Positions 29,901 through 58,490 are shown, counted from the stretch's first letter. The stretch is 64,000 nucleotides of DNA from an uncultured Spirochaetales bacterium (GCA_964608985.1 CAZSQU010000002.1:50849-114848); one strand, 5' to 3'. Notes: generated by a model not told the origin, from the sequence alone. Translations and numbers: made by a program.

Positions 29901-30067
29901 ATGACCTGTTCCGGCGTTAATTCTCTTTGTGTGAAAAGTTGTGCAGGTGTTGTTTCAGTAGTATCATCAGTTAGTTCTGTTACAGAACTGACATTTGAAT
30001 CCTGAGCGTAGAAAAGATTTGCTGAAATTAATAACATCAACAAAAACAAAGTAATTTTTTTAAACAT
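23942..30067 (-). CDS. giant (~2041 aa) secreted cell-surface protein: signal peptide, N-terminal coiled coil, more than 12 tandem Ig-like domains with recurring A.D.AGN motif, distinct ~300-aa C-terminal domain ending in Phe
   Basis: ATG at 30067 (MFKKITLFLLMLLISANLFYAQD) preferred over the listed 30100: GGAG RBS 5 nt upstream and a clean signal peptide. Repeating ~100-aa units contain VRATDIAGS / LEASAFDISGN / LNAVDSAGK / IDAIDMAGNP / IFAIDAAGNK / VQAFDIYGT / IRAKDNAGSES / VARVTDLAGNVS, typical of bacterial Ig-like domains. The C-terminal region is G/F/Y-rich and ends ...FGLGLRNSLF. Confidence 0.6.
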   Translation of the reverse strand: MFKKITLFLLMLLISANLFYAQDSNVSSVTELTDDTTETTPAQLFTQRELTPEQVIRNEIRDITNQIRAFERELSNTEKEITVTTDRLLFAGPRNPLPEEEMATVRAERSALLLRRVEIRQNIIEKRILMQSKENDLKNLQDDRITVEGTLNWNHQFDLAGKTGPWHIALTAIDNMRNTSFETAVNINIDPKSDIPTLTVINPLPNARVTGNLEIVGTALDNDAIDRVEVIIINESGEEEKFICSGTNFWSYNLTTTNMNDGNHMIKLRAYDNNGLGSQWKNVYGLTKDYTEIPFILDRRSPSITVSSLKSGDIISGNILLEGTASDSNKIRLIEYSIDNRLTFNTIENFTYREKVETAFKYSFSSDVMVDGKQTIWVRATDIAGSQGYFPISVTIDHQPPELEIIFPVDGATESGIFSSFVMARDNVDLTDVKFEIKGIDPALVTIESTESFPFWTFTIDTRRLRSGSYNLEASAFDISGNIITKTIRLNIDQNIDKPVLTLNSFSNNKIVSGVLPVFGTIVDNNGSKETLLTIFNAANQPVYTYTIPSKYNFSAMVDLRDKTIFPDGKYTAELVPVDINDTKGNPVKTIFYIDTQYPVFDMQTIAVWAGKSFGKSIDLPVNINKAGELRSASYSISDISGTEIIRDTQLRFRTTDSLRYTCDNIKIDFVQSRINVNDGIIVIKLNAVDSAGKTSSISVPIVIDKTPPRITAPVIQPRTGMIQNEIVTIEENLLMKEIKLTITPNSAEAETVNTVIEDMEAVFTLKTKTSDNKNIDYNIVIDAIDMAGNPVRSTFRVNFVNSPEPEYTLTFNVVKNDNTVYSPNPILFSGSTFNIDQNSQACFLFLSDNYNSTYGFKINNKTIPFIKTENSNGIYFVNITQENRIAIGSGSFNSSIIDITLNQPTSILTATVNNDYQIPVSKVIWPPANISLNNDFTIYGSVFDDSDTIELQFVDLKNIPATITMSDFEQNYAPNLNQAEKDELFRIYIKDRNNNLNLAQLTSDQLFNSSTLLIKAGILTKTPVALEPSTSIQRYQVPMIDALKRTQNQQLSQFITDNSITVNPNDKIFKIPVSVASLEDGFKRIVLIATDSSGKISYIPYSYIIDKTVPEITADRTVFQFNTASNENTEEEKVTGSVNIKGSAVDTNSISEIVYMFNGQQVVANGKRPYNFIYNLRDLQGINLRSTELINHNIEIFAIDAAGNKTIIQKAITIDPMSDIPQVYINSPSLSGQRFTNVVELGGLATDADGINYVQYRLNKSNGINGEWKRIEVTQGMNWNERIQTNGEMSGKYILEVQAFDIYGTASDIKSTDFHIDLENPTIHVRSPETNQYLKGETVIIGNSSDPNEIQKVQISINNGWSYFDANGSESWNYRFNSATLPDGELRVFIRAKDNAGSESFSFSLFNIDNTAPEIEVLYPRDGSEVGKEINIVGRSRDNIGLKSVEILLVTPTIKRINNQDVEVWVIAPLPGADANGYVSMPIDSLEAWSYKIDTTRWNDADIDKRYNLVARVTDLAGNVSESSINFKINPRADLPVLEIDQPQPNQRLTGDMIEFFGTSRHSAGIESVIVNIAGKEYKAIGTTNWSVSIPAVELPIGDQRITVRALTNPIAGNEQLSAQEFRTFSYDRCGPIVNVTTHLNGRAMEHRPWMEGTAEFFEKDIEFVVKRIIQERKHIEFQNRYRRTPELIPAVEDIEVSKGELIVELNRYRYDNRVVELLLSLDNGSTFETATVFNNIWRVRVQTQNLSDGVHMLQMKARTASGIETIKFFKIYIDRERPEIVIDTPVDSERVFRSVEVRGSSNDNGSVEEVKIALRQFDKDLGKIPQFIQGLYLWSQYDFDFLGGSGMLVSGGLGMSFFDDIVRLEGMFGWRPSRDNMQDLMPGAVTDPTLYPGTGIAKDDPIRNTGYYPYPEEGYNPRFMGFVVGGKLHARILDIPFEFFYGEDAKNFSISVSIGASFLWFSGFGASQREIADIANYNAAVDGKLLAGFMYQIDYFKVERFGILRKFALYFEHALFFVPAEVNAGVVMQFGLGLRNSLF

Positions 30068-30091
30068 AAAATCTCCTGAAAAAATCAAAAT

Positions 30092-30120
30092 ATTAAACAA
30101 TCATAAATTATTGTCGTCAA
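30092..30120 (-). promoter_or_regulatory. putative sigma70 promoter of the giant surface-protein gene (TTGACG - 17 nt - TTTAAT on the minus strand)
   Basis: Reverse complement of 30092-30120 gives TTGACGacaataatttatgattgTTTAAT, ~25 nt upstream of the ATG at 30067. Confidence 0.35.
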
Positions 30121-42760: not shown

Positions 42761-44605
42761 ATGAGACTATTAAAAATATTACCGTTGATGTTGATGTTGA
42801 TGAGTGTTTCAGTTTTTTATGCTCAGGATAATACGGTTGATCTGCAGAGTACAATTCAAATAGCACAGCTTAGGGAAGAGATAAGCACTATCAGAAGTGA
42901 AGTTGAGCAGTTAAAAGCAAAAAGCACTCTTTTTGATTTTACGATAGGCGGGAGTGCTAAGGTTATCTGGGGATTGAACCTTTGGGCAAGAGGTGGTGAT
43001 TTAGATACCGTTCCTGCGATCAATACTCTGACTCCTGTCACACATGGTTTTGATTTTGTTAATACTCTATTGTTTAATATGACACTTGGTAAGGACATTA
43101 TTGCAAGAAGCGGTGAAAAGAGCTATAACGGTACACAGATAGATATTGAGCTCAAAATTAATTCGATGGGTATCTCAGATATGAGACCGGACGGCAGCTG
43201 GTATGTTGTTGACGGATTTGATGACCAAGGAAATCCTGTTAAGATATATCTTCCAAAGTTTGAATCAGGGGCTTCTAATGTTTATTTTGGAAATTTTCAA
43301 TTAGTTCTTGATAAGGCAAGGGTTAGTAATATTTTTGATATGGGCATTTTTATTAATTACAGTGATGTTATGGAAGTACACAAATACTATGGTGTTAACA
43401 GTATGGTAGAGGTGTTAAAGCTAAATCATGATTATTTTAATCACGGTTTTGCCAATGGCGGTTCTTTATATTATGCTTTTGATGATTATGATTATGATCC
43501 GATTGCCGAAGAATCCGAGGCAGTTGATATATGGTCAAAAAGTGTATTGTATTTGGATCCGGCTGATCCTATCAGAAGCAGAGCTAATCAAAGACCGCAC
43601 GGTGTATCATTCGGATACGATAGTGCTAATATGTTAAGTAATTATTTCAGGTTCTATATTGAGGGCGGAATAAGTTCAAAAGATGCTTTTGATCCGAAGT
43701 TCTTTTCAGATCTTTATTTAGATTATGGATTTTTTGTAAGAACTGATCTTTTGATTAAAGACAATAAAGCGTTTACATTTCATCCTAAAATCGCTCTTGC
43801 ATTTGCATTTCAGTCAGATTCGGTTGAGGATCTCGATATAAATGCCGGCAAGGTTTTTTCATCATCAATATCAATCCCTTTAACATATCAATTTAATCAA
43901 AAAGATCACATAAATGTAGAATTTGACTGGAGTATAAATTATCACATAGACAGATCGGCTGTTACCACTATGATTGCTTTTTATCCGGAATTAACTCTGT
44001 TCAATCAGTCATTTTTTGTAAAGATTCCTTTTATGTACTCATTTAAGAATGGTACTGACGGAATAATCAGGGTTGGACATGAGGATGTAAAATGGATAGA
44101 TCAAACATACGATAACCATTATTTTAATCTTGAATTCATTATTGGATTTGATTCTCAAAAATTGTTCGGAGATATGTTCAGGTACAAATTTACAAACAAG
44201 ATGTTTTATACACATCTAAAATCTGATACAAGAAACATTAATTTTGCCAATCAGGTGCCTCCGGGTGAGCATTATTTTTATGAAATAATTGAGAACATGT
44301 TTTCATTTTATGAACTTGGCGATTCAACTTGGTCTATTAAAGAATTGAGTTTGTATTTGAACTTTGGTCTTGGATATACAAATAATGCAAGGATTATAAG
44401 GGATGGTTTCAGCATAGATCAGTATTTGAGATGGGGTGAGAATCTTGCATTATGTGTAGAAACAGGTTTATCGATTGTATTGATGGATAATCTTTCGTTT
44501 GGTTTTTCTGCCGAGTCACCCAAAATACTTGTAACTGCGATAAATCCGATTGGGGAACAAGCTTCGTTTGGTTTATTTAAGATATGGAGTGAGATTAAGT
44601 TTTAG
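42761..44605 (+). CDS. hypothetical outer-membrane beta-barrel protein
   Basis: Signal peptide MRLLKILPLMLMLMSVSVFYAQD (same FYAQD cleavage context as the giant surface protein). N-terminal coiled-coil segment. C-terminal ...FGLFKIWSEIKF beta-signal ending in Phe. Confidence 0.5.
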   Translation: MRLLKILPLMLMLMSVSVFYAQDNTVDLQSTIQIAQLREEISTIRSEVEQLKAKSTLFDFTIGGSAKVIWGLNLWARGGDLDTVPAINTLTPVTHGFDFVNTLLFNMTLGKDIIARSGEKSYNGTQIDIELKINSMGISDMRPDGSWYVVDGFDDQGNPVKIYLPKFESGASNVYFGNFQLVLDKARVSNIFDMGIFINYSDVMEVHKYYGVNSMVEVLKLNHDYFNHGFANGGSLYYAFDDYDYDPIAEESEAVDIWSKSVLYLDPADPIRSRANQRPHGVSFGYDSANMLSNYFRFYIEGGISSKDAFDPKFFSDLYLDYGFFVRTDLLIKDNKAFTFHPKIALAFAFQSDSVEDLDINAGKVFSSSISIPLTYQFNQKDHINVEFDWSINYHIDRSAVTTMIAFYPELTLFNQSFFVKIPFMYSFKNGTDGIIRVGHEDVKWIDQTYDNHYFNLEFIIGFDSQKLFGDMFRYKFTNKMFYTHLKSDTRNINFANQVPPGEHYFYEIIENMFSFYELGDSTWSIKELSLYLNFGLGYTNNARIIRDGFSIDQYLRWGENLALCVETGLSIVLMDNLSFGFSAESPKILVTAINPIGEQASFGLFKIWSEIKF

Positions 44606-44624
44606 CAATAATTACGGGGTGTCT

Positions 44625-45314
44625 ATGGATGCGGATAATTTTTCGATAAAGTATATTTTTGAATTTGATTCTAATGATAGTCTTGAGTTTGCTGTAAACA
44701 TTAATAGAAAAACTCTGATCTCTGTGGCTCCAACTGAGAGTAAGGAGTCCAAATGGACATTACTCGATTTTAATAAATGTGAACATTGCCCATTTACTCA
44801 GGATAAGGTTAAGAATTGTCCGATAGCTTTTAATATCTCAGGGGTTGCTGAGAATTTTGCAAAAAGACTTTCAACCGAAGAGATTAATGTAAGGGTTATA
44901 ACTGAAGAAAGGGAGTATTATAAAAGAGAAACTGTTCAACACGGATTAAGGTCAATACTTGGTATCTATACAGCAACAAGCGGTTGCCCGCACATGGATA
45001 TTTTAAAACCGATGGCAAGATTTCATCTGCCTTTTGCTACAGTAGAAGAAACGATGTACAGATATGTTACAAGTTATCTTCTGAGTCAGTATTTTGAGTA
45101 CAATAAAGGGAATAAGCCTGATTTTGATCTTGACGGACTTTTAGAAAAAAGTGATAATGTTGATAAGGTAAGTTACGGAATATCTACCCGTATTGAAGAG
45201 ATTACAGTCGGTGATGCGAACAATAATGCCATAGTGATCTTAAATGCTATCGGGCTTATGTTAAAGATAGAGATTGATAATAAATTAGATTCGCTTAGAT
45301 ATCTATTTAAATAG
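44625..45314 (+). CDS. hypothetical cytoplasmic protein with CxxC-containing motifs (CEHCP...NCP, SGCPHMD)
   Basis: ATG at 44625 with ACGGGG RBS preferred over the listed 44550, which overlaps the upstream OMP gene. No recognisable family. Confidence 0.4.
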   Translation: MDADNFSIKYIFEFDSNDSLEFAVNINRKTLISVAPTESKESKWTLLDFNKCEHCPFTQDKVKNCPIAFNISGVAENFAKRLSTEEINVRVITEEREYYKRETVQHGLRSILGIYTATSGCPHMDILKPMARFHLPFATVEETMYRYVTSYLLSQYFEYNKGNKPDFDLDGLLEKSDNVDKVSYGISTRIEEITVGDANNNAIVILNAIGLMLKIEIDNKLDSLRYLFK

Positions 45315-45331
45315 AGAATAAGAGGTTTATA

Positions 45332-46774
45332 ATGTTTATTGATGTTATTGTAGCTGAGGTTGGCAGTACTACGACAGTTGTTAACGGATTTAATGGGATA
45401 GATACTGATAATCCGCAATTTATCGGACAGGGGCAGGCCCCTACAAGTGTAGGAATAGGTGATGTAACAATTGGTTTAAGTGCGGCAATAGAGGATTTAC
45501 AAAAAAATTTAAATATCAGTGAACTTAAATATGGTAAAATGCTCGGTGCATCAAGTGCTGCCGGCGGATTAAAGATGACTGTCCATGGACTTGTTTATGA
45601 TATGACAGCTAAAGCCGCAAAAGAAGCTGCGCTTGGAGCAGGAGCAATAGTTCACAATGTAACGGCGGGGCGACTCAGACGAACCGATCTTGAAAAAATT
45701 AAAAACATAAAACCAAATATAATATTGATAGCCGGTGGGCTTGATTATGGTGAGAGGGAGACTGCTTTAGATAATGCAGAAATGATTCTTTCTCTAAATC
45801 TTGATATTCCTGTTATTTATGCCGGTAATTGTGAAAATAAAGAGGAAATTAAGCTCATATTTGAGAATTACAAAGGTAAATTGTATATTGCAGATAATGT
45901 TTATCCAAAGATAGATATATTAAATGTTGAGCCGACAAGAAAGATTATTCAAGATGTTTTTGAAGAGCATATTGTACATGCTCCGGGTATGTCAAAAGTT
46001 AAAGAGATGATTAACGGAACAATAATACCTGTTCCGGGTGCAGTTATGGAAGCCGCAAAAATACTTCGTGAAGAGATAGGCGATTTGATTGTGCTTGATG
46101 TCGGTGGAGCAACCACAGATCTTCATTCTGTAACTGAGGATTCCGAAGAGATTGCAAGGATATTGATAAATCCTGAACCTATTGCAAAGAGAACCGTTGA
46201 AGGTGATCTCGGCATGTTTGTAAATATGAGGAATGTTCTTGAAAGGATTGGTAAGGAAAAGATTGAGCAGGAATTGGGGTTTAGCATAGATACGATTCTT
46301 GAGAATTTTAAACCTATCCCGCAGAGTGAAAACGAGATAAAATTTGTTGAAAAATTGTGTCTTGAGGCAGTTCTGACAGCCGTTGAAAGACATGCAGGTG
46401 CAAGACGGTTTATGTATGGAACATCAGGAAGAAAAACTTATGCAGAAGGTAAGGATTTGACTCAGGTTGAATACATAATTGGGACAGGCGGGGCATTAAC
46501 TCGATTACCGGGTGGAAGAGATATAATGTCTAAAATTGCAAAGAATTCAAAAGAGATTGGGCTCTATCCGAGTGAACAAGCAAAAATATTGATAGATAAA
46601 TGGTATATAATGTCATCACTCGGTGTACTTGCAAAGGAACATCCCGAATCAGCTTTGATACTACTAAAAAGAAGTTTGGATGTAGAAGGAATAAAAAAAA
46701 TAAAGAAAAAGATAATTAAAGCTGATAGTAAGGAAGAAGCAGAGATTGTTGAGTCATGTACGCTAAAAGGTTAA
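45332..46774 (+). CDS. GlmL(MutL)/EutA-like duplicated ASKHA-fold ATPase; putative B12-enzyme reactivase/chaperone
   Basis: Two actin-like phosphate motifs (VIVAEVGSTTT near the N-terminus and VLDVGGATTDL in the second half). ~480 aa, as in glutamate-mutase GlmL/MutL and EutA proteins. Confidence 0.5.
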   Translation: MFIDVIVAEVGSTTTVVNGFNGIDTDNPQFIGQGQAPTSVGIGDVTIGLSAAIEDLQKNLNISELKYGKMLGASSAAGGLKMTVHGLVYDMTAKAAKEAALGAGAIVHNVTAGRLRRTDLEKIKNIKPNIILIAGGLDYGERETALDNAEMILSLNLDIPVIYAGNCENKEEIKLIFENYKGKLYIADNVYPKIDILNVEPTRKIIQDVFEEHIVHAPGMSKVKEMINGTIIPVPGAVMEAAKILREEIGDLIVLDVGGATTDLHSVTEDSEEIARILINPEPIAKRTVEGDLGMFVNMRNVLERIGKEKIEQELGFSIDTILENFKPIPQSENEIKFVEKLCLEAVLTAVERHAGARRFMYGTSGRKTYAEGKDLTQVEYIIGTGGALTRLPGGRDIMSKIAKNSKEIGLYPSEQAKILIDKWYIMSSLGVLAKEHPESALILLKRSLDVEGIKKIKKKIIKADSKEEAEIVESCTLKG

Positions 46775-46783
46775 TTTATTTAA

Positions 46784-47479
46784 CTATTGGGTCAGTTCGC
46801 AGAACACACATTTAACTTCATTGTTATTAAGAAGGATTCTTCCTGTTTTCTCGCTAGATATTGTTATATCAATCTCGTTCAAATCTTCAATTATAAACTG
46901 TGTTCCCGGGATTATTCCGTCAGAGATAAGTTTGTTTCTCAAGTTTTTTTCACCGGTAATAATCGATATGCTTATTTTTTCGGATTTTTTAAAGTTAATT
47001 ATGTTATCAATATAGCGATTTGATCGGATGTTTGTTTTATCATTGCTTTTAAGATATATGTCGAGTTGGGTGATAAAATCATCTTCCGGTTTAAACCTTT
47101 GGCCTAAGAATTCAAGAAATTTAAGTAATCTTTCTGATGAAAGATTACTTATGTAGTGTTCTATGTTACAAGCATCTGTTTTTGCAATATCTTCAGGTAC
47201 CTGAAGAATTTTTGTAAAAAAATCAAGTATAGTAATGTGTTTGTAATATACCTCACGGGCCTTGTTTATTCCTTTATCGGTAATAAAAACCGCTTTGTAT
47301 CTTTCATGAATCAGATAACCTTTTTCGGCAAGCTTTTCTACCATCGAAAAGACAGTTGATTTTTTTATGTTAAGATTGGCGGCAATATCTGTTATTCTTA
47401 CACCGTTTTCGCTGTTTTTGGAGAGAAGAAATATCTCTTCGAGATAGTCCTCTTCTCTTTTACCTTTATGGACATCCAT
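46784..47479 (-). CDS. DtxR/MntR-family metal-dependent transcriptional regulator with C-terminal FeoA-like (SH3) domain
   Basis: REEDYLEEIFLL...VRITDIAANLNIKKSTVFSMVEKLAEKGYL wHTH, a metal-binding/dimerisation helix region, and a C-terminal FeoA-like segment (ITGEKNLRNKLISDGIIPGTQFII). Confidence 0.75.
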   Translation of the reverse strand: MDVHKGKREEDYLEEIFLLSKNSENGVRITDIAANLNIKKSTVFSMVEKLAEKGYLIHERYKAVFITDKGINKAREVYYKHITILDFFTKILQVPEDIAKTDACNIEHYISNLSSERLLKFLEFLGQRFKPEDDFITQLDIYLKSNDKTNIRSNRYIDNIINFKKSEKISISIITGEKNLRNKLISDGIIPGTQFIIEDLNEIDITISSEKTGRILLNNNEVKCVFCELTQ

Positions 47480-48506: not shown

Positions 48507-51500
48507 ATGAGTTTTAGGAATACAATTTTAAAAATAATTTCAGAGAAACCTGGTTTTAGAGCAGTTATTGATAGTTTTTCTAACAGTAATTCAATCAATA
48601 TCAGAGGATTGAACGGTAGTGCTGTTTCTGTTTTTACTGATGTATTAAGCGCGGAATCTGATAAGTCAATACTATTAATAACGGCAAGCGACAATGATGC
48701 AAAAGGATTTCATTCTGATCTCGTAAGTCTCGGAGTAGAATATGCTTTCTATTATCCTTCAATTAATATTATGCCATATAACCGATCTGTTGTAAATGAA
48801 GAGGTAGAATCTTCAAGAATTGATGTAATTAAAAGATTAGTCAACGGTGAAAAGATAATTGTTTGTACTTCATTACAGGCAAGTGTCGGGCAGATAACTC
48901 CAATTCATGCAATTGCACCATTTTATCTCGATATATCTGAAGGGATTAAAATTGATGTAGAAAAATTAAAGGGTGATCTTAACAGGGCAGGTTATAGAAG
49001 AACACAATCTGTTAATGACCCCGGTGAATTTTCTATGAGGGGCGGAATAATCGACATTTATTATTCTCCCCATAAAAGACCGGTTAGGATAGATTTATTT
49101 GATGATATAGTGGAAACAATTAAACATTTTGATCCCGATACACAAAAAAGCAGTGAATCAATAAAATCAATATTTATTCCGCCATACAAAGAAATTCTAT
49201 ATGGCGAAACTGAGATTAAACGGGCTTCGGTTTTGATAGATAAGATCGGCGGGAGTGTTGAAAACAGAACTGCGATTCTTGAAAAGATAAAAAATTTCAG
49301 CAGATTTGACGGAGAGTACTTCTTAATATCATTATTCTATGAAAAATATTCAATAACAGACTATTTCCTCGATCAAATAATTATTATTAATGATTCTGTT
49401 ATGTGCGGCAAGAGATACAAAACGATAATCAGCGAATATGAAGAAAACTATCATCTCCCTTTTAATCGTGATATTCCACGGTTTACAAAAGAAGATATAC
49501 TTTTTGACTATGATTTATTAAACGATAATGCAGCTTCTTTAATTAATGTAGAAAGCTTTAATTCAAGTGATGAAATTGTAATAGATTTCGGATTTAAAGG
49601 GATACCGGTTTATCTAGGCAATCTTGAGCTTTTCAGAAAGGATTTGGAAAAATATCTTGATGACGGATATAAAATAGTATTGTTCGGCGGGAATAAAGTA
49701 CAGCAAGAGAGACTTATATCACTTTTTTCGGGGTTTAATCCGATCGATGACCGCTTTGAATTTGTTAAGAATGGTTTTAGTGTTTATTCTACACCATTGT
49801 CTTACGGTTTTATCTCAGATGAAGACAAACTGTTTTTTCTAAATGATTATGAGCTTTTCGGTAAAAGAAAGATTAGTCAACATTATTACTCAAGAAGAAC
49901 CGAGCAGATCGATAGTTTTATTGATATTAATCCGGGCGATTATGTTGTACATATACATCATGGAATAGGGCTTTATCAAGGCATCGAAAGAATGAAGAGT
50001 CTCGGTGTCGAAAAAGATTATATCAGGGTTTTGTATGCTGATAACGAGAAACTTTTTATACCTGTTGAGCAGCTGAATTTTATTCAGAAATACATATCGA
50101 GCGGCATATCTGAACCGAAACTTGACAAACTCGGCGGTAAAGGATGGAACAGTACCAGAGTTAAGGTACAGAAATCTATTGAGGAACTTGCCCGCGAGTT
50201 AGTTAAGATATATGCTTATCGACTTAATCAAAAAGGCTTTGCTTTTGCACCGGACACACCTTGGCAGAGAGAGTTTGAGGCGGCTTTTCCTTATGACGAA
50301 ACAGAAGATCAGCTTTTATCCATTGAAGAGGTAAAAAGGGATATGGAGAGTGATCGCCCGATGGACCGGCTTATTTGCGGTGATGTAGGTTTTGGTAAGA
50401 CGGAGGTTGCCATTCGGGCGGCATTTAAGGCGGTGATGTCAGGTAAACAAGTCGCAATTCTTGTGCCGACTACTATCCTTGCCGAGCAGCATTATGAAAA
50501 TATGGAAGAACGGATGAAGAATTATCCGGTAAAAATTGAGATGCTTTCGAGGTTTAGAAGTGAACAGGAACAGACCCAAATTATTGGGAAGCTTGCACTG
50601 GGTGAGGTCGATATAATTGTTGGAACTCACAGACTTCTATCTAATGATATTAAGTATAAGAACCTTGGATTGTTGATTATTGATGAAGAGCATAAATTCG
50701 GTGTAAAACATAAAGAAAAAATAAAGAAATTCAGAATATCTGTTGATTCTTTATCTATGACGGCAACCCCCATTCCAAGAACCCTGCATATGTCACTTGC
50801 AAAGATTAGGGACATGTCTGTGATAAATACTCCTCCAAAAGATAGGCAACCTGTTGAGACCTTTGTCAGTGAATACAATGAAGAGATCATAATTGATGCT
50901 GTTGAACGAGAATTAAAAAGGGATGGGCAGGTTTTTTTCTTGTATAACAGGGTACAAACGATCTATACAATGAGGAATCATCTCCAGAAAATTCTACCAA
51001 AGGCAAGGATAGAGGTGGCTCATGGACAGATGGAGGAGAATGAGCTTGAGGATGTTATTCATAACTTTATTAATCATAAGTTTGATATACTTCTTACAAC
51101 AACTATTATTGAATCGGGGATAGATATCCCCAGGGCAAATACGATTATTATTGATAGGGCTGATAAGTTCGGATTAGCTTCTCTCTACCAGTTACGGGGG
51201 CGTGTTGGAAGATCAGATAAACAAGGTTATGCTTATCTGTTTTATAGTGAGGATATAGCATTAACTGAGGTTGCTATGAAAAGATTACGGGTAATCTCGG
51301 AGTACACCGATCTCGGCAGCGGGTTTAAGGTTGCTATGAAGGACCTTGAGATTCGAGGTGCCGGTAATCTTTTCGGACCGGAACAGAGCGGAAATATACT
51401 TGCTGTCGGTTTTCATTTATACTGTAAACTATTACAGCAGGCAGTAAATGAGATAGCTAAAGCTGAAGGGGAATCCGATATTATAGAGAGTAATGAGGTT

Positions 51501-51953
51501 TATATTGACATGAAATATAACGGTTTTATTCCCGATGATTATATTCCCGATCAGAAGACAAAAATAGAGTTCTATAAAAAGATCGCCGGAGTTATTCACA
51601 ATGATGAAATAGGTGAGATTAAAAGACTATTGGAAGATAGATACGGCAAAATACCGTCAGAGGTGTTGACTCTATTTTATCTTTCGGAGATTCGTGTTAT
51701 TTGTAAAAAGCTAAAAGTAACGGATGTTATTGAGAGGAATGGAGTTGTAGAGGTTAAATTTGGCGAAATAAAGCAGTTTGATGTTATAAAATTTATGAAT
51801 TTTATTAATAAACGGGCTAAATATGTCAGTATTAAACCGGACAAACCCGAATCTTTGTTCGTTAAAACCGGTGAAGGCGAAAATCTAAAAGATAAAGGTG
51901 AATTATTAACCGGTATGCTTCTTGAGTTTGACAAATCTATTTGTGAAAAATAA
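48507..51953 (+). CDS. mfd: transcription-repair coupling factor Mfd
   Basis: UvrB-homology N-region, RNAP-interacting domain, superfamily-2 translocase motifs (GDVGFGKTEVA, DEEH, LSMTATPIPRT, QLRGRVGRS), TRCF C-terminal domain. 1148 aa. Confidence 0.9.
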   Translation: MSFRNTILKIISEKPGFRAVIDSFSNSNSINIRGLNGSAVSVFTDVLSAESDKSILLITASDNDAKGFHSDLVSLGVEYAFYYPSINIMPYNRSVVNEEVESSRIDVIKRLVNGEKIIVCTSLQASVGQITPIHAIAPFYLDISEGIKIDVEKLKGDLNRAGYRRTQSVNDPGEFSMRGGIIDIYYSPHKRPVRIDLFDDIVETIKHFDPDTQKSSESIKSIFIPPYKEILYGETEIKRASVLIDKIGGSVENRTAILEKIKNFSRFDGEYFLISLFYEKYSITDYFLDQIIIINDSVMCGKRYKTIISEYEENYHLPFNRDIPRFTKEDILFDYDLLNDNAASLINVESFNSSDEIVIDFGFKGIPVYLGNLELFRKDLEKYLDDGYKIVLFGGNKVQQERLISLFSGFNPIDDRFEFVKNGFSVYSTPLSYGFISDEDKLFFLNDYELFGKRKISQHYYSRRTEQIDSFIDINPGDYVVHIHHGIGLYQGIERMKSLGVEKDYIRVLYADNEKLFIPVEQLNFIQKYISSGISEPKLDKLGGKGWNSTRVKVQKSIEELARELVKIYAYRLNQKGFAFAPDTPWQREFEAAFPYDETEDQLLSIEEVKRDMESDRPMDRLICGDVGFGKTEVAIRAAFKAVMSGKQVAILVPTTILAEQHYENMEERMKNYPVKIEMLSRFRSEQEQTQIIGKLALGEVDIIVGTHRLLSNDIKYKNLGLLIIDEEHKFGVKHKEKIKKFRISVDSLSMTATPIPRTLHMSLAKIRDMSVINTPPKDRQPVETFVSEYNEEIIIDAVERELKRDGQVFFLYNRVQTIYTMRNHLQKILPKARIEVAHGQMEENELEDVIHNFINHKFDILLTTTIIESGIDIPRANTIIIDRADKFGLASLYQLRGRVGRSDKQGYAYLFYSEDIALTEVAMKRLRVISEYTDLGSGFKVAMKDLEIRGAGNLFGPEQSGNILAVGFHLYCKLLQQAVNEIAKAEGESDIIESNEVYIDMKYNGFIPDDYIPDQKTKIEFYKKIAGVIHNDEIGEIKRLLEDRYGKIPSEVLTLFYLSEIRVICKKLKVTDVIERNGVVEVKFGEIKQFDVIKFMNFINKRAKYVSIKPDKPESLFVKTGEGENLKDKGELLTGMLLEFDKSICEK

Positions 51954-51997
51954 GTCTTCTTTAAAAATTTCTAATAATCAGTTTTTTAGAATTCATC

Positions 51998-52045
51998 TTG
52001 ACAATTGAGCATTTGTTCATTATAATGTATTGAGCATATGTTCAA
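51998..52045 (+). promoter_or_regulatory. sigma70 promoter (TTGACA - 17 nt - TATAAT) carrying two copies of a 16-bp near-palindromic operator TTGAGCAT(T/A)TGTTCA(A)
   Basis: Consensus -35 at 51998-52003 and -10 at 52021-52026. Operator copy 1 (52005-52019) fills the spacer. Copy 2 (52030-52045) sits at the predicted transcription start. The 16-mer TTGAGCATATGTTCAA is 14/16 self-complementary. Confidence 0.55.
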
Positions 52046-52070
52046 AATTGTATTTATTTAGGATTGAATT

Positions 52071-52523
52071 TTGTCTCGTAATAAAAAATGCAGAAGATTA
52101 TCTGAGATACCTATTGCAAAAGGGTATAGACCTTTTGGTGTGTCAATGTTTACGCTAGAGCCTGTAATTATTGTTCTTGAGGAATACGAGGCATTTAAAC
52201 TTGCAGATTATATCGGATTATCACACGAAGAGGCAGCAGTAAGAATGGATGTTTCAAGACCTACATTTACCCGAATCTATGAGAGTGTAAGAAAAAAACT
52301 TGCTATTGCCCTTGCTGAAGGAAAAAGTTTTATAATTGAGGGCGGAAATGTTGAGTTGGATTTTGACAGGTATAAGTGTAATGAGTGTGACAATATTTTT
52401 ATTATCGATAAGAACAGCAGTTCGAAAGAAGTTGTATGTTTAAAATGCGGTTCAGTAAATGTTATCAGTTTAAATGAATGTTTTACTGTAGGTTGTGCCG
52501 CTTGCTGCAGGTGTAAGGATTAA
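52071..52523 (+). CDS. DUF134/UPF0251-family predicted DNA-binding protein with C-terminal Cys-rich zinc-ribbon extension
   Basis: N-terminus MSRNKKCRRLS...G.RPFG...LEEYEAFKLADYIGLSHEEAAVRMDVSRPTFTRIYESVRKKLAIALAEGKSFIIEGG follows the DUF134 pattern (sigma-70 region-4-like HTH). C-terminal CNECD...CLKCGS...CFTVGCAACCRC cysteine cluster. TTG start. Confidence 0.6.
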   Translation: MSRNKKCRRLSEIPIAKGYRPFGVSMFTLEPVIIVLEEYEAFKLADYIGLSHEEAAVRMDVSRPTFTRIYESVRKKLAIALAEGKSFIIEGGNVELDFDRYKCNECDNIFIIDKNSSSKEVVCLKCGSVNVISLNECFTVGCAACCRCKD

Positions 52524-52555
52524 TTTAAAAAAAGATATTTAATGGAAAAACACAA

Positions 52556-53473
52556 ATGAAAACATATATTGATTGTATTCCTTGTTTCTATAGACAGATA
52601 ATTGATACAGCAAGGATCGCCGGTGCAGACGACAAATTAATTAAAAAAATAATTGATAAATCCGGAGTTTTTATCAAGCAAAATGGTTTGAACTTCTCAC
52701 CTCCTGAAATAATAGGTGAAATATATCAGATAATAAAAAATAAAACCGGTGATAATGATCCATATAATATTATTAAAGATCAGAGTAATAAATCCGCAAT
52801 GGCAGTATATGACTTTTGCAAGTCTAAGATTGAACTATCAAGTGATAGGTTATTATCAGCTGTTGAGATGGCTATTGCGGGGAATATTATTGACTTTGGT
52901 ATAAAAGGATCAATTGATATAGAAAAAGAGATTTTAAATATATTAAAAGAAGAAAGCAAGCTTATAAAGAATCATCGAACAGATTATTTTGCGTATGAAG
53001 AATTTAATAATAAAGTAACCGGTTCTAGTAGAATTATATACCTGGGGGATAATGCCGGCGAAATTGTTTTTGATAAGATGCTTATTGAAGAGATATTAAG
53101 GGTAAATCCGGCAGTAAATATCGTCTATATGGTAAGAGAAATTCCGATTATAAACGATGTTCTTATGAGTGATGCAAAATTCTGCGGGTTAGATACTTTA
53201 ACCGATATCGTATCATCCGGATCAAGAGTACCGGGAACAGTCTATAAAAAGTGCCCAAAATCAGTAAAAAAGTTATTTAAAAAATCTGATTTTATAATAA
53301 GCAAAGGTCAGGGGAATTTTGAATCATTTGTTTATGAACAAAAAGATGTTTTTTATCTTTTTATGGCAAAATGTTCAATAGTAGCAAAAGAAGTTGGATG
53401 CAATGTCGGTAATATAAATTTGTATTATAAAAAAAAAGGGGTGAAAAATGAAGATAGCAATACCTACAAGTGA
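52556..53473 (+). CDS. DUF89-family protein (damage-control phosphatase, ARMT1-like)
   Basis: Hallmark N-terminus MKTYIDCIPCFYRQ (MK...C.PC..RQ) and GDNAGEIVFD metal-binding segment typical of DUF89. Confidence 0.65.
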   Translation: MKTYIDCIPCFYRQIIDTARIAGADDKLIKKIIDKSGVFIKQNGLNFSPPEIIGEIYQIIKNKTGDNDPYNIIKDQSNKSAMAVYDFCKSKIELSSDRLLSAVEMAIAGNIIDFGIKGSIDIEKEILNILKEESKLIKNHRTDYFAYEEFNNKVTGSSRIIYLGDNAGEIVFDKMLIEEILRVNPAVNIVYMVREIPIINDVLMSDAKFCGLDTLTDIVSSGSRVPGTVYKKCPKSVKKLFKKSDFIISKGQGNFESFVYEQKDVFYLFMAKCSIVAKEVGCNVGNINLYYKKKGVKNEDSNTYK

Positions 53474-53783
53474 TAAGGTTAATATCAATGACCATTTTGG
53501 CCGTGCAGATTATTTTGCAATCTATGATGACAGCGGTGTTGAACCGGTTTATTACTATGATAATAGAGAAAATGCTAATTCTGCTCAAGGAGCAGGAATA
53601 CAAGCGGCGACCGGTGTAGTCAATGAGAAGGTAGAGGTTGTATTATCCCCCAGCTTGGGGCCAAAAGCAACAGATGTTTTAAAATCTGCCGGAGTTAAGT
53701 CTTATCTCATTGTTGAAAAAGGTATACCTTTAATAGAAGTACTCAAAAGTTACAAAGATGGCAAACTAAAATCGATCTATTGA
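53448..53783 (+). CDS. NifX/NifB/NafY-like dinitrogenase FeMo-cofactor-binding-domain protein (Nitro_FeMo-Co family)
   Basis: MKIAIPTSDKVNINDHFGRADYFAIYD is the canonical start of this ~110-aa domain family. GGGGTG RBS. Overlaps the DUF89 gene end by 26 nt. Confidence 0.65.
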   Translation: MKIAIPTSDKVNINDHFGRADYFAIYDDSGVEPVYYYDNRENANSAQGAGIQAATGVVNEKVEVVLSPSLGPKATDVLKSAGVKSYLIVEKGIPLIEVLKSYKDGKLKSIY

Positions 53784-53808
53784 TTGTCTTAGAATAAATG
53801 GAGTTAAT

Positions 53809-54612
53809 ATGCAAATTGTTACTCTCATAGAAAATATGGTTTATGATCAAGGGCTGACTGCCGAACACGGTTTGTCGCTATATTTAGAATCCGGCAATAA
53901 AAAAATTGTTTTTGATACCGGTCAGACCGGTAATTTTGTTAATAATGCAGTCAGACTCGGTGTAGATATAAGCACTGTTACTGACCTTGTAATTAGTCAT
54001 GGTCATTATGATCATACCGGCGGGATATTAAACTTTATTAAGAATAATAATCATGCAAAGATACATATTAAAAGACAGGCTTTCATAAAAAAGTATCGTA
54101 CTAATAAAACCGATTCAATCGGAATCCCGTTTGATCCGGATTTTATCAGTGAAAGAATTAATTTTATTGATAAAAAAACTGAGATATCGTCAGGCGTTTT
54201 TATAATGCCCGAAATTATTATATATGAACCGGAAGATCTGCATTATGACGGTATGTTTATTAAAAATGCTGATCAATTCATACCGGATAAGTTTGATGAT
54301 GAATTGTTTCTTGCAGTGGTTAATGAAGAAAAGTTAACAATTGTATCCGGTTGCTCACATAACGGAATAATTAATATCTGCGAAACTGCGGCAAATCAAT
54401 TAAATCTAAAGTTTAATACAATATTAGGCGGATTTCATCTAATGAATAGTAATGAAGCCCATATTCGTTTACTTTCAGAGTATTTCAAAAAAATCAATCC
54501 GGAGAAGATCGGGGTCTGCCATTGCACCGGAATAGATAAGTTTGCTATATTAAAGAATATTTTAGGTAAAAAGGTTTTTTATAACTATACAGGAAAAAAA
54601 ATAATAATTTAA
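53809..54612 (+). CDS. MBL-fold metallo-hydrolase
   Basis: VISHGHYDHTGG (HxHxDH zinc motif) and downstream His/Asp ligands (GCSHNG, FHLMN). Confidence 0.7.
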   Translation: MQIVTLIENMVYDQGLTAEHGLSLYLESGNKKIVFDTGQTGNFVNNAVRLGVDISTVTDLVISHGHYDHTGGILNFIKNNNHAKIHIKRQAFIKKYRTNKTDSIGIPFDPDFISERINFIDKKTEISSGVFIMPEIIIYEPEDLHYDGMFIKNADQFIPDKFDDELFLAVVNEEKLTIVSGCSHNGIINICETAANQLNLKFNTILGGFHLMNSNEAHIRLLSEYFKKINPEKIGVCHCTGIDKFAILKNILGKKVFYNYTGKKIII

Positions 54613-54625
54613 TAAAGGGGTATTT

Positions 54626-55846
54626 ATGCACAATCAAAATCAAGATGAAGAATTACAGAACATGATGAGGGAGCAAAATCTTAACCGGATAAAGAACAAG
54701 ATAGTTGTTATAAGCGGTAAGGGTGGGGTCGGTAAGAGTACTGTTAGTGTTAACCTTGCTTACGCATTGGCTCTTGAAGGAAATAGTGTCGGACTTATGG
54801 ATGTTGATATTCACGGCCCGTCTGTTGCCAAGATGACAGGTATTGAGGGCAAAAGGCTTGTTGCCGGTAATAATGGAAGAGCAATACCGATTGAGGCGGT
54901 TAATAACCTTCATGTTATATCAATTGCTTCTATGTTAGAACACCCCGATGACCCTGTAGTTTGGCGTGGACCGGCTAAGATGGGGGTCATCAAACAATTT
55001 CTTGAGGAGATTGAATGGCCGGAGTTAGACTACCTTATTGTTGATTGTCCTCCGGGTACAGGCGATGAGCCATTGAGCGTAATTCAGCTTATAGGGAATG
55101 TTACCGGAGCGGTTATTGTTTCAACTCCACAGGATGTTGCATTTCTTGATGCAAGAAAGTCGATTTCGTTTGCTAATATGCTTAAAGTTCCTGTTTTAGG
55201 TATAATTGAGAATATGGCCGGATTTACTTGTCCCCATTGTAAAGGAAAGGTAGATATTTTTAAATCAGGTGGGGCTGTTAAAGCGGCAAAGGACTTTAAT
55301 GTTGAGGTTCTTGGGGCTATACCGATTGAGACAGCTATCGTTGAGTCAGGCGATTCGGGTAAGCCATTTGTTTATTTCTTCAGTAAAACAGAAGCCGGTA
55401 AGGAATTCTTGTCAATAGTAGATAAAATTACAGAAAAAATTCAAACTCAAAATAAGGCGTCTTCTGAATCTAAAAAAAATAAAACCGAAAAAATAGCTAT
55501 TCCTGTTGATGGAGATATCTTGGCAGAACATTTCGGGCATGCGCCAAAGTTTGTAATATATGATATTGACGGTAAAAAAATATTATCAAGTAGTGAACAT
55601 ACACCTCCGCCCCATGAGCCGGGTGTGATACCAAAGTGGCTTGATAGTTTAAATGTAACAAAGATTATCACCGGCGGTATAGGTCAGGGAGCTGTAAACT
55701 TCTTTAATCAGTTCAAAATTGAGGTTTTTTCCGGAGCGCCTGTAATACAGCACAACGAATTGATTTTAAAATACCTGAATAATGAACTGTCAACCGGCGG
55801 GGCTAAGTGTGATCACTCGGGAGAACACAGCTGCGGAGGTCATTAA
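54626..55846 (+). CDS. Mrp/NBP35/ApbC-family Fe-S cluster carrier ATPase fused to a C-terminal NifX-like (Nitro_FeMo-Co) domain
   Basis: Deviant Walker A ISGKGGVGKST, CPHC cluster-binding motif (GFTCPHCKG), then KIAIPVDGDILAEHFGHAPKFVIYD repeating the NifX-like signature. Confidence 0.75.
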   Translation: MHNQNQDEELQNMMREQNLNRIKNKIVVISGKGGVGKSTVSVNLAYALALEGNSVGLMDVDIHGPSVAKMTGIEGKRLVAGNNGRAIPIEAVNNLHVISIASMLEHPDDPVVWRGPAKMGVIKQFLEEIEWPELDYLIVDCPPGTGDEPLSVIQLIGNVTGAVIVSTPQDVAFLDARKSISFANMLKVPVLGIIENMAGFTCPHCKGKVDIFKSGGAVKAAKDFNVEVLGAIPIETAIVESGDSGKPFVYFFSKTEAGKEFLSIVDKITEKIQTQNKASSESKKNKTEKIAIPVDGDILAEHFGHAPKFVIYDIDGKKILSSSEHTPPPHEPGVIPKWLDSLNVTKIITGGIGQGAVNFFNQFKIEVFSGAPVIQHNELILKYLNNELSTGGAKCDHSGEHSCGGH

Positions 55847-55870
55847 TAGTCCGGTATTCAAGTTTCAATC

Positions 55871-55907
55871 AAGCCGCAATAGTAAATTCTAATGCGGCTT
55901 TTTTTAT
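55871..55907 (+). terminator. rho-independent terminator after the Mrp/NBP35 gene
   Basis: AAGCCGCA-(13-nt loop)-TGCGGCTT followed by TTTTTTT. Confidence 0.6.
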
Positions 55908-56024
55908 TTTTTTTCTCTTATTTATCTTGATTATTATTTATAAATTATTATATTTGATTAGTAAAATATTATATAGTAGTCAATATTTTGTTATTAGATT
56001 GAAATAATTGAATCGGGGGTTATT

Positions 56025-58490
56025 ATGGGCAAATACCTAATTGTGGGTGGAGTAGCAGGTGGGGCAACAACAGCGGCTCGTCTTAGAAGGATTGATGAAA
56101 AATCGGAAATAATAATGTTTGAGCGCGGAGATTATATATCTTATGCGAATTGCGGGCTTCCATATTATGTTGGGGGGACAATAAAAGAAAGAGATTCTTT
56201 ATTTGTTATGACACCGGAGAAATTTTATGCCCGTCTTGCGGTTGATGTAAGGATTAAAAGTGAGGTAACGGCAATTGACAGAAAGAATAAAGAGGTTACA
56301 GTAAAAGATCTAAAAACCGGAAAAGAATACAAGGAGAGATATGACAAGCTTGTTTTATCCCCCGGTGCAGAACCCGTAAGACCCCCGATACCGGGTATAG
56401 AGAGTAATTTAATATTTACCATGAGAAGTGTGCCGGATACAGATGCGATTAAGAACTTTGTTGACACTAATAAACCCCAAAGAGCAGTTATAATTGGAGC
56501 TGGTTTCATTGGAATCGAAATGGCAGAGAACCTTCATCATAGAGGAATCAAGGTTACAATTATTGAAGCACTTGATCAGATGATGGGGGTTCTTGATTAT
56601 GAGATGGCTTCCGAGATACATCAACATCTAAAGATAAAAGGGGTTGAATTTTATCTCGGAGACGGCGTGAAGAATTTCAATCAACTGCCTAAAGGTCTTA
56701 CTGTTGTACTTAACAGCGGTAAAACAATTTCAAGCGATATGGTAATACTTTCAATTGGCGTTAGACCGGAAACTAAACTTGCAAAAGAAGCGGGTATAGA
56801 TTGTAACGAAAGGGGTTTTATCCATGTAGATAAGTATATGCAGACTAATGATCCGGATATTTATGCATTAGGTGATGCTGTCTGTTTCACAAGTCCGATT
56901 ACCGGTAAGATTGTTAACACTTTACTTGCGGGACCGGCAAATAAACAGGGGCGTATTCTTGCTGATAATATTGTTTTCGGCAATAAGAGGGAGTATAAAG
57001 GGGCAATAGCTACGGCTGTTGCGAAGGTATTTGATCTTACTGTTGCTTCAACCGGCATGCCCGAGAAAATTATTCAAAAAGAAAACATCCCGTATTTAAC
57101 AAATATAATACACGCCGGAAGTCATGCCGGTTACTATCCCGGTGCACTGCCAATGAGTTTAAAGCTTGTTTTCTCGCCGGTTGACGGAAGAATTTACGGT
57201 GCTCAAGCAGTTGGTTATGAAGGTGTAGATAAGCGGATTGATGTTATAGCCGCTATAATCGGAAAAAACGGAACTATTTATGATCTACAGGAGGTTGAAC
57301 ACTGTTATGCGCCGCCATTCTCCAGTGCAAAAGATCCGGTCAATCAGGCAGGGTTTGCCGCTGAGAATATTCTAAGGGGGCTTGTTAAGGTAATTACCTG
57401 GAAAGAGTTATTTGAGTCGGATAGGTCTAAACTGCTGTTGCTTGATGTAAGAACACCAGATGAAGTGGAGATAAACAGGGTAAATGGTGCTTTAACTATT
57501 CCGGTTGATGATATCCGTGCAAGGTTAAAAGAGATTCCAAAAGATAAAAAAATTGTTGTTTTTTGTGCAGTGGGGTTAAGAGGGTACTTTGCGTGTAGAA
57601 TTCTTATGCAGTCAGGTTATACTGATGTTTATAATCTTTCGGGTGGTTATAAGATATACGAGCTTGCAACAGGAAAACAGTCAAATGAGGATGTGTTTAC
57701 CCACGATGAATATGATATTGAAGGTGTTGTTTATGAAAACAGGGAGAAAATTGATATGAGTAAAACAGTTGAAGTAGATGCTTGCGGACTTCAATGTCCC
57801 GGTCCAATATTAAGATTGAAACAAGAAGTTGATAAGTTAAGGGTAGGCGAGATTCTTGAAATAAAAGCAAGTGATCCCGGGTTTATGAAAGATAGTCAAT
57901 CGTGGTGTAATGTGACAGGAAATAAACTCATTTCTATCAATAGTGATAAAGGTGTTATTACTGCTGTTATTCAAAAAGGTGAGTCTTTACCGTCTTGTAA
58001 GGTGTCAGATAACGGCGGCAGTGAAAACAAAACAATAATTGTTTTTAGTAATGATTTTGATAAAGTGCTTGCGGCTTTTGTAATAGCTAACGGTGCGGCG
58101 AGTATGGGTAAGAAAGTTACGATGTTTTTTACATTCTGGGGGCTTGTAGTTCTGAAGAAAAAAAAGAGCGGACGGGTAAAAAAAGATTTTATGGGCAAGA
58201 TGTTCGGTATGATGCTGCCGAAATATTCAAAGAAATTAACATTGTCAAAGATGAATATGGGCGGTATGGGGACAGTGATGATGAGGGGTAGAATGAAGGC
58301 AAAGCAGGTCGATTCACTTGAGACTATGATTAATCAAGCTTTGGAAAATGGTGTTAAATTTATAGCTTGCCAGATGTCTATGGATGTTATGGGGGTTAAA
58401 AAAGAGGAGTTGATGGATCAAGTTGAGATAGGCGGTGTGGCATCTTATCTTGAAGAAGCGGATAAGTCGAGTCATAATTTGTTTATATAG
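56025..58490 (+). CDS. multidomain CoA-disulfide reductase / persulfide reductase-like flavoprotein fused to rhodanese, TusA-like and DsrE/DsrF-like domains
   Basis: FAD/NAD(P) pyridine-nucleotide disulfide oxidoreductase with single active Cys (YANCGLPYY) and NAD site VIIGAGFIGIE. Rhodanese Cys loop FCAVGLRG. TusA CGLQCPGP. DsrE-like KTIIVFSNDFDKVLAAFVIANGAASMGKKVTMFFTFWGL. Confidence 0.75.
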   Translation: MGKYLIVGGVAGGATTAARLRRIDEKSEIIMFERGDYISYANCGLPYYVGGTIKERDSLFVMTPEKFYARLAVDVRIKSEVTAIDRKNKEVTVKDLKTGKEYKERYDKLVLSPGAEPVRPPIPGIESNLIFTMRSVPDTDAIKNFVDTNKPQRAVIIGAGFIGIEMAENLHHRGIKVTIIEALDQMMGVLDYEMASEIHQHLKIKGVEFYLGDGVKNFNQLPKGLTVVLNSGKTISSDMVILSIGVRPETKLAKEAGIDCNERGFIHVDKYMQTNDPDIYALGDAVCFTSPITGKIVNTLLAGPANKQGRILADNIVFGNKREYKGAIATAVAKVFDLTVASTGMPEKIIQKENIPYLTNIIHAGSHAGYYPGALPMSLKLVFSPVDGRIYGAQAVGYEGVDKRIDVIAAIIGKNGTIYDLQEVEHCYAPPFSSAKDPVNQAGFAAENILRGLVKVITWKELFESDRSKLLLLDVRTPDEVEINRVNGALTIPVDDIRARLKEIPKDKKIVVFCAVGLRGYFACRILMQSGYTDVYNLSGGYKIYELATGKQSNEDVFTHDEYDIEGVVYENREKIDMSKTVEVDACGLQCPGPILRLKQEVDKLRVGEILEIKASDPGFMKDSQSWCNVTGNKLISINSDKGVITAVIQKGESLPSCKVSDNGGSENKTIIVFSNDFDKVLAAFVIANGAASMGKKVTMFFTFWGLVVLKKKKSGRVKKDFMGKMFGMMLPKYSKKLTLSKMNMGGMGTVMMRGRMKAKQVDSLETMINQALENGVKFIACQMSMDVMGVKKEELMDQVEIGGVASYLEEADKSSHNLFI

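Follow-up and report, generated by a model that had tools for sequence, protein, structure and literature searches.

Paired promoter-embedded palindromes, probable operators, accompany DUF134 and orange-protein-like genes in several phyla and suggest DUF134 as their repressor

Which regulator acts on a promoter of consensus strength that carries two nearly identical palindromes, and which genes does it control? The question is raised by positions 51998-52045 (cTTGACAaTTGAGCATTTGTTCATTATAATgtaTTGAGCATATGTTCAAaa) of a 64-kb stretch of DNA from an uncultured Spirochaetales bacterium—hereafter the window, i.e., the whole stretch analysed, with lexA and recA lying outside it. The palindromes precede a gene for a DUF134 protein, which in turn heads a set of genes resembling those of the orange-protein (ORP) system. 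Our analysis indicates that both palindromes are, very probably, functional operators of a dedicated regulator, and it points to DUF134 itself as the protein that probably binds them. The promoter region comprises the following elements, where L numbers denote loci from other genomes:

51998-52003, plus strand: -35 hexamer TTGACA, part of a 12/12 promoter match and kept in L001, L002, L007 and L014.
52005-52020 (14-bp core 52006-52019), plus strand: operator site 1, TTGAGCATTTGTTCAT, occupying the whole 17-nt spacer.
52021-52026, plus strand: -10 hexamer TATAAT, separated from the -35 hexamer by the 17-nt spacer.
52030-52045 (14-bp core 52031-52044), plus strand: operator site 2, TTGAGCATATGTTCAA, over the predicted transcription start.
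52061-52064, plus strand: Shine-Dalgarno sequence AGGA, 6 nt 5' of the TTG start codon, read from the sequence.

An initial annotation of this DNA had described two near-palindromic 16-mers superimposed on a consensus promoter 5' of DUF134, and the sequence, a repeat finder and a position weight matrix (PWM) built from foreign sites all agree with that description. Both hexamers are perfect, as had been stated: they form the sole 12/12 sigma-70 match in a promoter scan of 51000-56500, and TTGACA-N16-18-TATAAT occurs once in the 64 kb, against an expectation of 0.11. No match to a sigma-54 promoter was found near 52000. The two copies lie 25 bp apart from start to start and are 94% identical over 16 nt; the repeat finder returned a single direct-repeat family (52004-52019 and 52029-52044), and copy 2 is self-complementary at 14 of 16 positions, i.e., it is a palindrome. 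Copy 1 fills the 17-nt spacer as proposed, but copy 2, which had been placed at about +4 to +20, had to be shifted: since the -10 hexamer ends at 52026 and transcription is expected to begin near 52033 (as predicted from the -10 position), this copy extends from about -4 to +12, across the start. Both copies contain GAGC/GAAC-N4-GTTC, a core of the LexA type, and both carry G for A at the fourth half-site base of the left arm. Because orthologous promoters show ATGAAC-N4-GTTCAT, the TTGAGC...GTTCAA form of the window is a variant of the family consensus wwATGAAC-ATAT-GTTCATww.

Within the window the motif does not recur. We found no further copy with two or fewer mismatches anywhere in the 64 kb, and hence no third site to extend a regulon locally; the best match with three mismatches sits inside uvrD, and the total of four matches with up to three mismatches was reached by 12 of 100 shuffles and is not significant alone. 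The regulon can therefore be defined only across other genomes.

Orthologous loci supplied the closest comparison. The window DUF134 protein has 325 homologues at E <=1e-5, and the synteny of DUF134 with NifX-like, metallo-beta-lactamase-fold (MBL) and Mrp genes is retained in the retrieved homologue contigs. The promoters of L001 (DUF134 76% identical; cTTGACAaaTGAGCATTTGTTCATTATACTacatgTGAACATATGCTCAaa), L002 (60% identical; aTTGACAaaTGAACATAAGTTCATTATAAAtgattATGAACTTATGTTCATaa) and L007 (TTGACAaaTGAGCATATGTTCATTATGTTCATCCTGAACAT) were aligned with that of the window, the row of L041 being disregarded; L002 is a spirochaete, since its contig carries FlaA genes. The order -35, site 1, -10, site 2 is common to the window, L001 and L096 (76-77% identity), L002, L007 and L014, and in contrast to the promoter itself, the DNA 5' of the -35 hexamer is unalignable among these loci. 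Moreover, TGARC-N4-GYTCA is confined to the DUF134 promoter within each orthologue locus of ~10 kb (L001, L002, L007). The relative orientation of the two sites differs between relatives: in L001/L096 and L041, site 2 matches the reverse complement of site 1 exactly or nearly so, its TGAGC arm lying in mirror image, and the region from -35 to +15 thereby forms one larger dyad, whereas the copies in the window are in direct orientation.

A wider view was obtained by scanning the DUF134 alignment against one genome per GTDB species, which yielded 80 loci (590 kb). These derive from a Spirochaetales metagenome-assembled genome (L096, uncultured; at 77% identity the nearest named relative), Cloacimonadota, Verrucomicrobia subdivision 3 and many Bacteroidota, including Prolixibacter, Draconibacterium, Rikenella and Alkaliflexus. 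The core GA[AG]C-N4-G[TC]TC has 51 matches in the 150-bp regions upstream of DUF134 (11.8 kb) and 57 in the other 578 kb—a density 44-fold higher before DUF134 (binomial p 1.3e-56), found in four phyla and peaking at -25 to -75. This enrichment, together with the conserved layout of the orthologous promoters, is the outcome of a comparison that the initial annotation had named beforehand as a check. Many of the remaining matches lie directly 5' of neighbouring DUF5320, NifX-like, MBL, DUF89 and Mrp genes; because these promoters also carry the core, the motif marks a regulon that extends beyond one gene. The cultivable Prolixibacter denitrificans DSM 27267 and P. bellariivorans (L103, L109), for example, have sites ahead of DUF134 as well as ahead of DUF89. 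The Bacteroidota promoters are of the phylum's own type, and there site 1 is placed between TTTG (-33) and TAnnTTTG (-7), with site 2 directly after the -7 box at a spacing of 23 bp. The occluding architecture is thus kept on a different type of promoter. The consensus of 71 sites, wwATGAAC-ATAT-GTTCATww, includes flanking T/A positions and a central ATAT that arose without being set by the search pattern. When the PWM derived from these 71 sites, all from other genomes and none from the window, was run over the window, the two sites scored 21.4 and 20.2 bits, and the runner-up among ~128,000 positions reached 9.6.

The reverse search, from motif to genes, was conducted in metagenomes with a pattern for a promoter-embedded site (TTGACANNTGARCNNNNGTTCATTAT). 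It returned 86 loci, for which the downstream class labels were confirmed by Pfam. By the gene-calling rule, DUF134 is the first gene in 13 loci, and a direct profile search found DUF134 within 750 bp downstream of 17 promoters. A DUF5320 gene comes first in 33, usually followed by NifX-like, CbiA/ParA-ferredoxin, Mrp, MBL or CooT-like genes. Another 15 loci combine TetR with a methyltransferase-like gene (the latter label by sequence reading), about 6 carry lexA/dinB, and the remainder is made up of short contigs and assorted genes. The bare GAAC-N4-GTTC core is hence common to three or more families of regulators. In 34 promoters another palindrome lies 25-35 bp downstream, and all of these are of the DUF134 or DUF5320 class or on truncated contigs (TetR class, 0 of 15; LexA class, 0 of 6); a spacing of 23-27 bp between two sites was likewise seen at ORP-like promoters only. 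This distribution makes the double operator specific to ORP-like genes.

Several further features of the metagenome loci were recorded. Among the DUF5320-first promoters, many have TGAAC-N4-GTTCA as the spacer site and a second palindrome of another type, TGGKC-ATAA-GMCCA, behind the -10 hexamer (L011, L021, L030, L031, L040, L049, L052, L061, L064, L065, L071, L083 and L087), and several of these are preceded by a 70-aa Zn_ribbon_8/FmdB-like gene. Small open reading frames (ORFs) 5' of some DUF5320 promoters were considered as DUF134 genes and rejected: the weak profile matches cover the zinc-ribbon part only, and the proteins are Zn_ribbon_8/FmdB-like and contain no helix-turn-helix (HTH). 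The TetR-family genes (L020, L039, L044, L045, L047, L051, L053, L072, L076, L078-L080, L084 and L086) stand behind a single site in the arrangement TTGACA-nn-TGAACAAATGTTCA-TTATAAT and form an unrelated class with the same promoter-embedded core; where the contig is long enough, in 10 loci, the TetR gene is followed by the methyltransferase-like gene, so labelled from its sequence. Finally, the lexA/dinB genes of L012, L017, L066, L091 and L094, from uncultured lineages, lie behind TTGACAAGTGAAC-N4-GTTCATTATA, i.e., Cheo-type LexA boxes in the spacer of a consensus promoter.

What the promoter of the window controls follows from the genes between it and the next terminator, with mfd lying upstream of the promoter and ending at 51953:

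52071-52523, plus strand: DUF134 gene, starting with TTG and encoding 150 aa (PF02001 score 72.3 bits, cut-off 27).
52556-53473, plus strand: DUF89/ARMT1-like damage-control phosphatase gene (PF01937, E 1.5e-67).
53448-53783, plus strand: NifX/ORP-like gene encoding a small, orange-protein-like Nitro_FeMo-Co protein (PF02579, E 1.4e-15).
53809-54612, plus strand: MBL gene (PF00753), syntenic in L001 and L002.
54626-55846, plus strand: MrpORP gene, an Mrp/NBP35 P-loop ATPase with a C-terminal Nitro_FeMo-Co domain (Pfam ParA and Nitro_FeMo-Co).
55871-55916, plus strand: intrinsic terminator, consisting of a hairpin (-15.4 kcal/mol, z -6.1) with a U run behind it.

As predicted from the sequence, the terminator closes a five-gene operon, DUF134-DUF89-NifX-like-MBL-MrpORP, at 52071-55846. 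The MrpORP gene passes the NCBIfam NF041136 equivalog cut-off (484 bits against 450). A CbiA/ParA protein with ferredoxin motifs (Orp3/Orp4-type) is absent from the operon of the window; CbiA/ParA-ferredoxin genes were found in the relatives L001, L005, L096 and many others. The initial annotation had offered, as an alternative to autoregulation, a regulator of the whole downstream Fe-S/sulfur cluster. This idea holds insofar as promoters of neighbouring metallocluster genes are marked by the same sites, and it is compatible with DUF134 autoregulation because one regulon would then comprise both; it does not extend to the CoA-disulfide-reductase/sulfur-carrier gene, which lies beyond the strong terminator and has no operator in the window. 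That gene (56025-58490, plus strand) encodes a protein of 821 aa in which CoA-disulfide reductase, rhodanese, TusA and DsrE2-like parts are fused. Its homologues in the Bacteroidota loci L128, L133, L148, L157 and L164 are co-transcribed with DUF134 behind a double operator, and the fusion probably works together with the ORP-like system.

The DUF134 protein has the features of a candidate DNA-binding protein. Its sigma-70 region-4-like HTH is followed by a zinc ribbon of the CxxC...CxxC pattern and by a tail whose cysteines, C137, C142, C145, C146 and C148, are arranged as C-x4-C-x2-CC-x-C; the HTH had been predicted in the initial annotation and is corroborated by the PF02001 match and by structural superposition. 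In an AlphaFold2 model (mean predicted local distance difference test score 81.6), a three-helix HTH at residues 36-83 is followed by the zinc ribbon. Foldseek superposes the HTH on the -35-binding region 4 of extracytoplasmic-function sigma factors with a root-mean-square deviation of 0.7-1.0 A and matches the C-terminus to Zn-ribbon proteins; whole-chain matches to the MCM N-terminal domain, with a template modeling score of about 0.2, were dismissed as not meaningful. Across 25 homologues there is no variation in the recognition-helix residues S62 R63 P64 T65 T67 R68 (SRPTxTR) or in the four cysteines of the ribbon, and most of these proteins also have a CF-x2-GC-x2-C-x2-C tail. An invariant recognition helix facing an invariant TGAAC half-site across phyla is the pattern that would be expected of a cognate pair. 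The family also occurs in archaea. In other DUF134 subfamilies the protein contains another zinc ribbon or is fused to a Nitro_FeMo-Co domain, and the fusions tie the regulator to a cluster-carrier domain. One of them, a natural fusion of DUF134 (HTH), zinc ribbon and Nitro_FeMo-Co (Pfam) encoded at L068 330-1182 (283 aa), suggests a regulator that may sense, or hand over, the cofactor bound by the carriers of the operon; DUF134 proteins of similar long form are encoded in L154 (322 aa) and L158 (262 aa). The gene starts with TTG in the window (52071) and in the 76% and 60% orthologues (L001, 6002; L002, 6001), and with ATG in distant homologues; the conserved TTG fits a low-abundance regulator with a weak start codon.

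Taken together, the site positions and the gene order suggest a control logic that is probably classical, a strong promoter being blocked at tandem operators under negative autoregulation. One repressor dimer would sit in the -35/-10 spacer and a second over the transcription start; with both sites filled, RNA polymerase would be unable to bind or open the consensus-strength promoter. Because occupied sites would block the polymerase in this way, the operon would be off by default and fully on once the repressor leaves. We infer that binding would repress transcription and that the repressor would be DUF134, the product of the first gene. DUF134 is put forward as the binder because the motif co-occurs with it and because no other DNA-binding family recurs in ORP-like clusters. 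The tight repression and autoregulation first proposed for this locus are thus favoured by the conservation of the promoter, and the part assigned to DUF134 is favoured by this co-occurrence. The DUF134-operator pair would govern an ORP-like regulon in anaerobes that belong to several phyla, comprising DUF134, DUF5320, NifX-like, CbiA/ParA-ferredoxin, Mrp, MBL and DUF89 genes and, in some lineages, CoA-disulfide reductase. Release of the repressor might follow when the Cys-rich C-terminus, or the NifX-like domain in the fusions, senses a redox, Fe-S or metallocluster signal—a step modelled on Desulfovibrio vulgaris, in which low redox potential induces the orp operons. A sensory role for the Cys-rich C-terminus, proposed by analogy, is speculative and in our view somewhat doubtful.

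Several findings weigh against this assignment. No relative of DUF134 was found in the Protein Data Bank by sequence, and no functional study of DUF134 (UPF0251, COG1342, PF02001) was found in the searchable literature; the same holds for DUF5320 and for the operator motif. Motif and gene do not always travel together: 24 of the 80 DUF134 loci have no motif nearby, among them a paralogous subgroup (Draconibacterium/Maribellus type) located away from ORP-like genes, and only five of the 18 operator-bearing DUF5320-first loci of at least 5 kb hold a DUF134 gene in the fetched stretch, so that the regulator of the others has to be a trans-acting one, possibly of a different family. LexA and a TetR-family protein use the GAAC-N4-GTTC core in other metagenomic lineages, which means that the binder is not identifiable from sequence alone. 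The spacing of the sites also varies (23, 25, 26, 27 and 33-35 bp), and a fixed tetramer geometry can therefore not be claimed. The signal and the direction of the response are guesses.

These points bear most directly on the possibility that the ORP-like operators are genuine but bound by a trans-acting regulator, e.g., of the CRP/FNR, Rrf2 or ArsR type, with DUF134 being merely regulated or acting on other targets. We consider this unlikely, though it deserves more weight than the other alternatives. The 13 long DUF5320-first loci lacking DUF134 in up to 14 kb are in its favour, as is the 5-4-5 geometry of the palindromes, which is generally known to be typical of CRP/FNR-type proteins. Iron or metal regulators also lie near some clusters, yet they vary by locus—DtxR-type in the window, Fe_dep_repr/FeoA in L007, Fur plus ArsR on the P0008 contig—and none recurs between loci, whereas DUF134 is consistently present and the motif peaks directly 5' of it in four phyla. 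Likewise, no other regulator recurs in the 13 long loci that lack DUF134, where ArsR-like genes were seen in two and a PadR-like gene in one (labels by eye). In addition, the TGAAC half-site with its 4-bp centre, compared by eye with consensus sequences, looks unlike those of FNR (TTGAT-N4-ATCAA), Rex (TTGTGAA-N4-TTCACAA), Fur, DtxR and NrdR. Since the GAAC-N4-GTTC core is that of the Gram-positive LexA box, a point absent from the initial annotation, the palindromes also had to be weighed as Cheo boxes that would place the operon in the DNA-damage (SOS) regulon. The core is identical to that of the Cheo box; the gene upstream is mfd, and a promoter-embedded site precedes lexA/dinB in about 6 metagenome loci, in which LexA_DNA_bind and Peptidase_S24 domains were confirmed. 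However, sites of the LexA class are single and mostly flanked by GTGAAC, and double sites occur in ORP-like promoters only; the genes controlled here are metallocluster carriers rather than repair genes, and across the 80 loci the motif tracks ORP-like genes. The uvrD gene of the window (15876-17936) has no upstream site. The motif also precedes DUF134 and ORP-like genes in Bacteroidota, a phylum in which the sequence bound by SOS repressors is GGA-N5-TCC or CTAA-N5-TTAG (PMC8565304). The arrangement of the sites, the genes controlled and the Bacteroidota data led us to reject the LexA explanation as very improbable.

Still less credible is the view that no protein operator exists, the palindromes being either a chance product of AT-rich promoter DNA or, for copy 2, a 5'-terminal hairpin that stabilises the mRNA. 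Copy 2 would indeed be transcribed and could form a 6-bp hairpin, and the shuffle test of the window on its own leaves room for chance; but copy 1 is untranscribed and equally conserved, the fold of the 5' untranslated region is no better than shuffles (z -0.47), and no Rfam family matches in the promoter region. With the enrichment across phyla and the PWM scores far above the runner-up, the comparative data refute this explanation for practical purposes.

How does a DUF134-operator circuit relate to what is known of ORP control? In D. vulgaris Hildenborough, two orp operons are transcribed from sigma-54 promoters activated by OrpR together with integration host factor; OrpR is an enhancer-binding protein that senses redox potential through a [4Fe-4S] PAS domain, and orp expression occurs only at low redox potential (PMC8359166, PMC3897727, PMC6345978). 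In the description given by these authors, OrpR is restricted to deltaproteobacteria; their papers do not deal with the control of ORP-like genes in other groups. Both systems are dedicated, tightly regulated and anaerobe-specific, and both include an MrpORP-type gene joining Mrp/NBP35 to Nitro_FeMo-Co and a Nitro_FeMo-Co gene of the orange-protein kind, to which relatives of the window add CbiA/ParA-ferredoxin genes of the Orp3/4-like kind. They differ in that the window has a sigma-70 promoter with two repressor-type operators, pointing to negative rather than positive control, probably by DUF134; among those window ORFs that were scanned with Pfam, no gene for an enhancer-binding protein was found. 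The first gene of D. vulgaris orp1 (DVU2107/orp7) is presumably also a DUF134 protein.

Like autoregulated repressors such as LexA at lexA and members of the TetR family, the locus has palindromic sites of 14-16 bp over the spacer and start of a strong promoter, and the candidate regulator gene, with its weak TTG start codon, comes first in the operon; the candidate itself is a PF02001 protein with a single sigma region-4-like HTH and has neither the winged-helix/S24 nor the TetR fold. The Gram-positive Cheo box (CGAACATATGTTCG) shares the GAAC-N4-GTTC core and an AT-rich centre with the ORP operator, which is set apart by flanks of the type A/T-T...A-A/T in place of C...G, by its pairing before metallocluster genes and by its occurrence in Bacteroidota. 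IscR, SufR and NsrR/RsrR (Rrf2 and related) offer a functional analogy only: they are likewise Cys-rich repressors encoded with Fe-S or metallocluster genes and act at promoter-overlapping operators, but their fold and motif differ. As far as the searchable literature shows, the regulator family, the operator and the cross-phylum ORP-like regulon are undescribed. On balance, we lean towards DUF134 being an unrecognised family of metal-, Fe-S- or redox-responsive repressors with an ATGAAC-N4-GTTCAT operator, part of an ancestral ORP circuit shared across phyla that may have been overlaid or replaced by OrpR/sigma-54 in deltaproteobacteria.

This proposal would give DUF134, a family widespread in anaerobic bacteria, a testable function with a defined operator and a defined regulon. 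It would also provide regulatory logic that has been missing for ORP/MrpORP systems outside deltaproteobacteria, the Desulfovibrio sigma-54/OrpR switch being the sole known control. The DUF5320, DUF89, MBL, NifX-like, CbiA-ferredoxin and Mrp genes, sometimes with the CoA-disulfide reductase-sulfur carrier, would form one co-regulated unit, a gene set that should aid in working out the role of the ORP system. The overlap with the Cheo box calls for caution in predicting SOS regulons, since an ORP operator can be mis-scored as a LexA box and Cheo boxes can be confused with the ORP operator.

Other genes of the window were noted in passing. A DtxR/MntR-family metal-dependent repressor is encoded 4.5 kb upstream of the operator (46784-47479, minus strand); the box type of this family looks unlike the palindrome, and the gene is not conserved beside orthologous operons. 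The segment 10717-14560 (plus strand) holds nrdR, with ATP-cone and Zn ribbon, and behind it nrdD, for the anaerobic ribonucleotide reductase, and a gene resembling radical-SAM activases. The largest gene of the window is an ORF of 2052 aa at 23942-30100 (minus strand). A DUF6901 gene and, after it, a glutamate-mutase-reactivase-like gene of the 'MutL' type (PF13941) lie at 44550-46774 (plus strand), and a lysine/ornithine aminomutase-like B12 protein is encoded farther upstream at 21635-23827; taken together, these genes suggest amino-acid fermentation.

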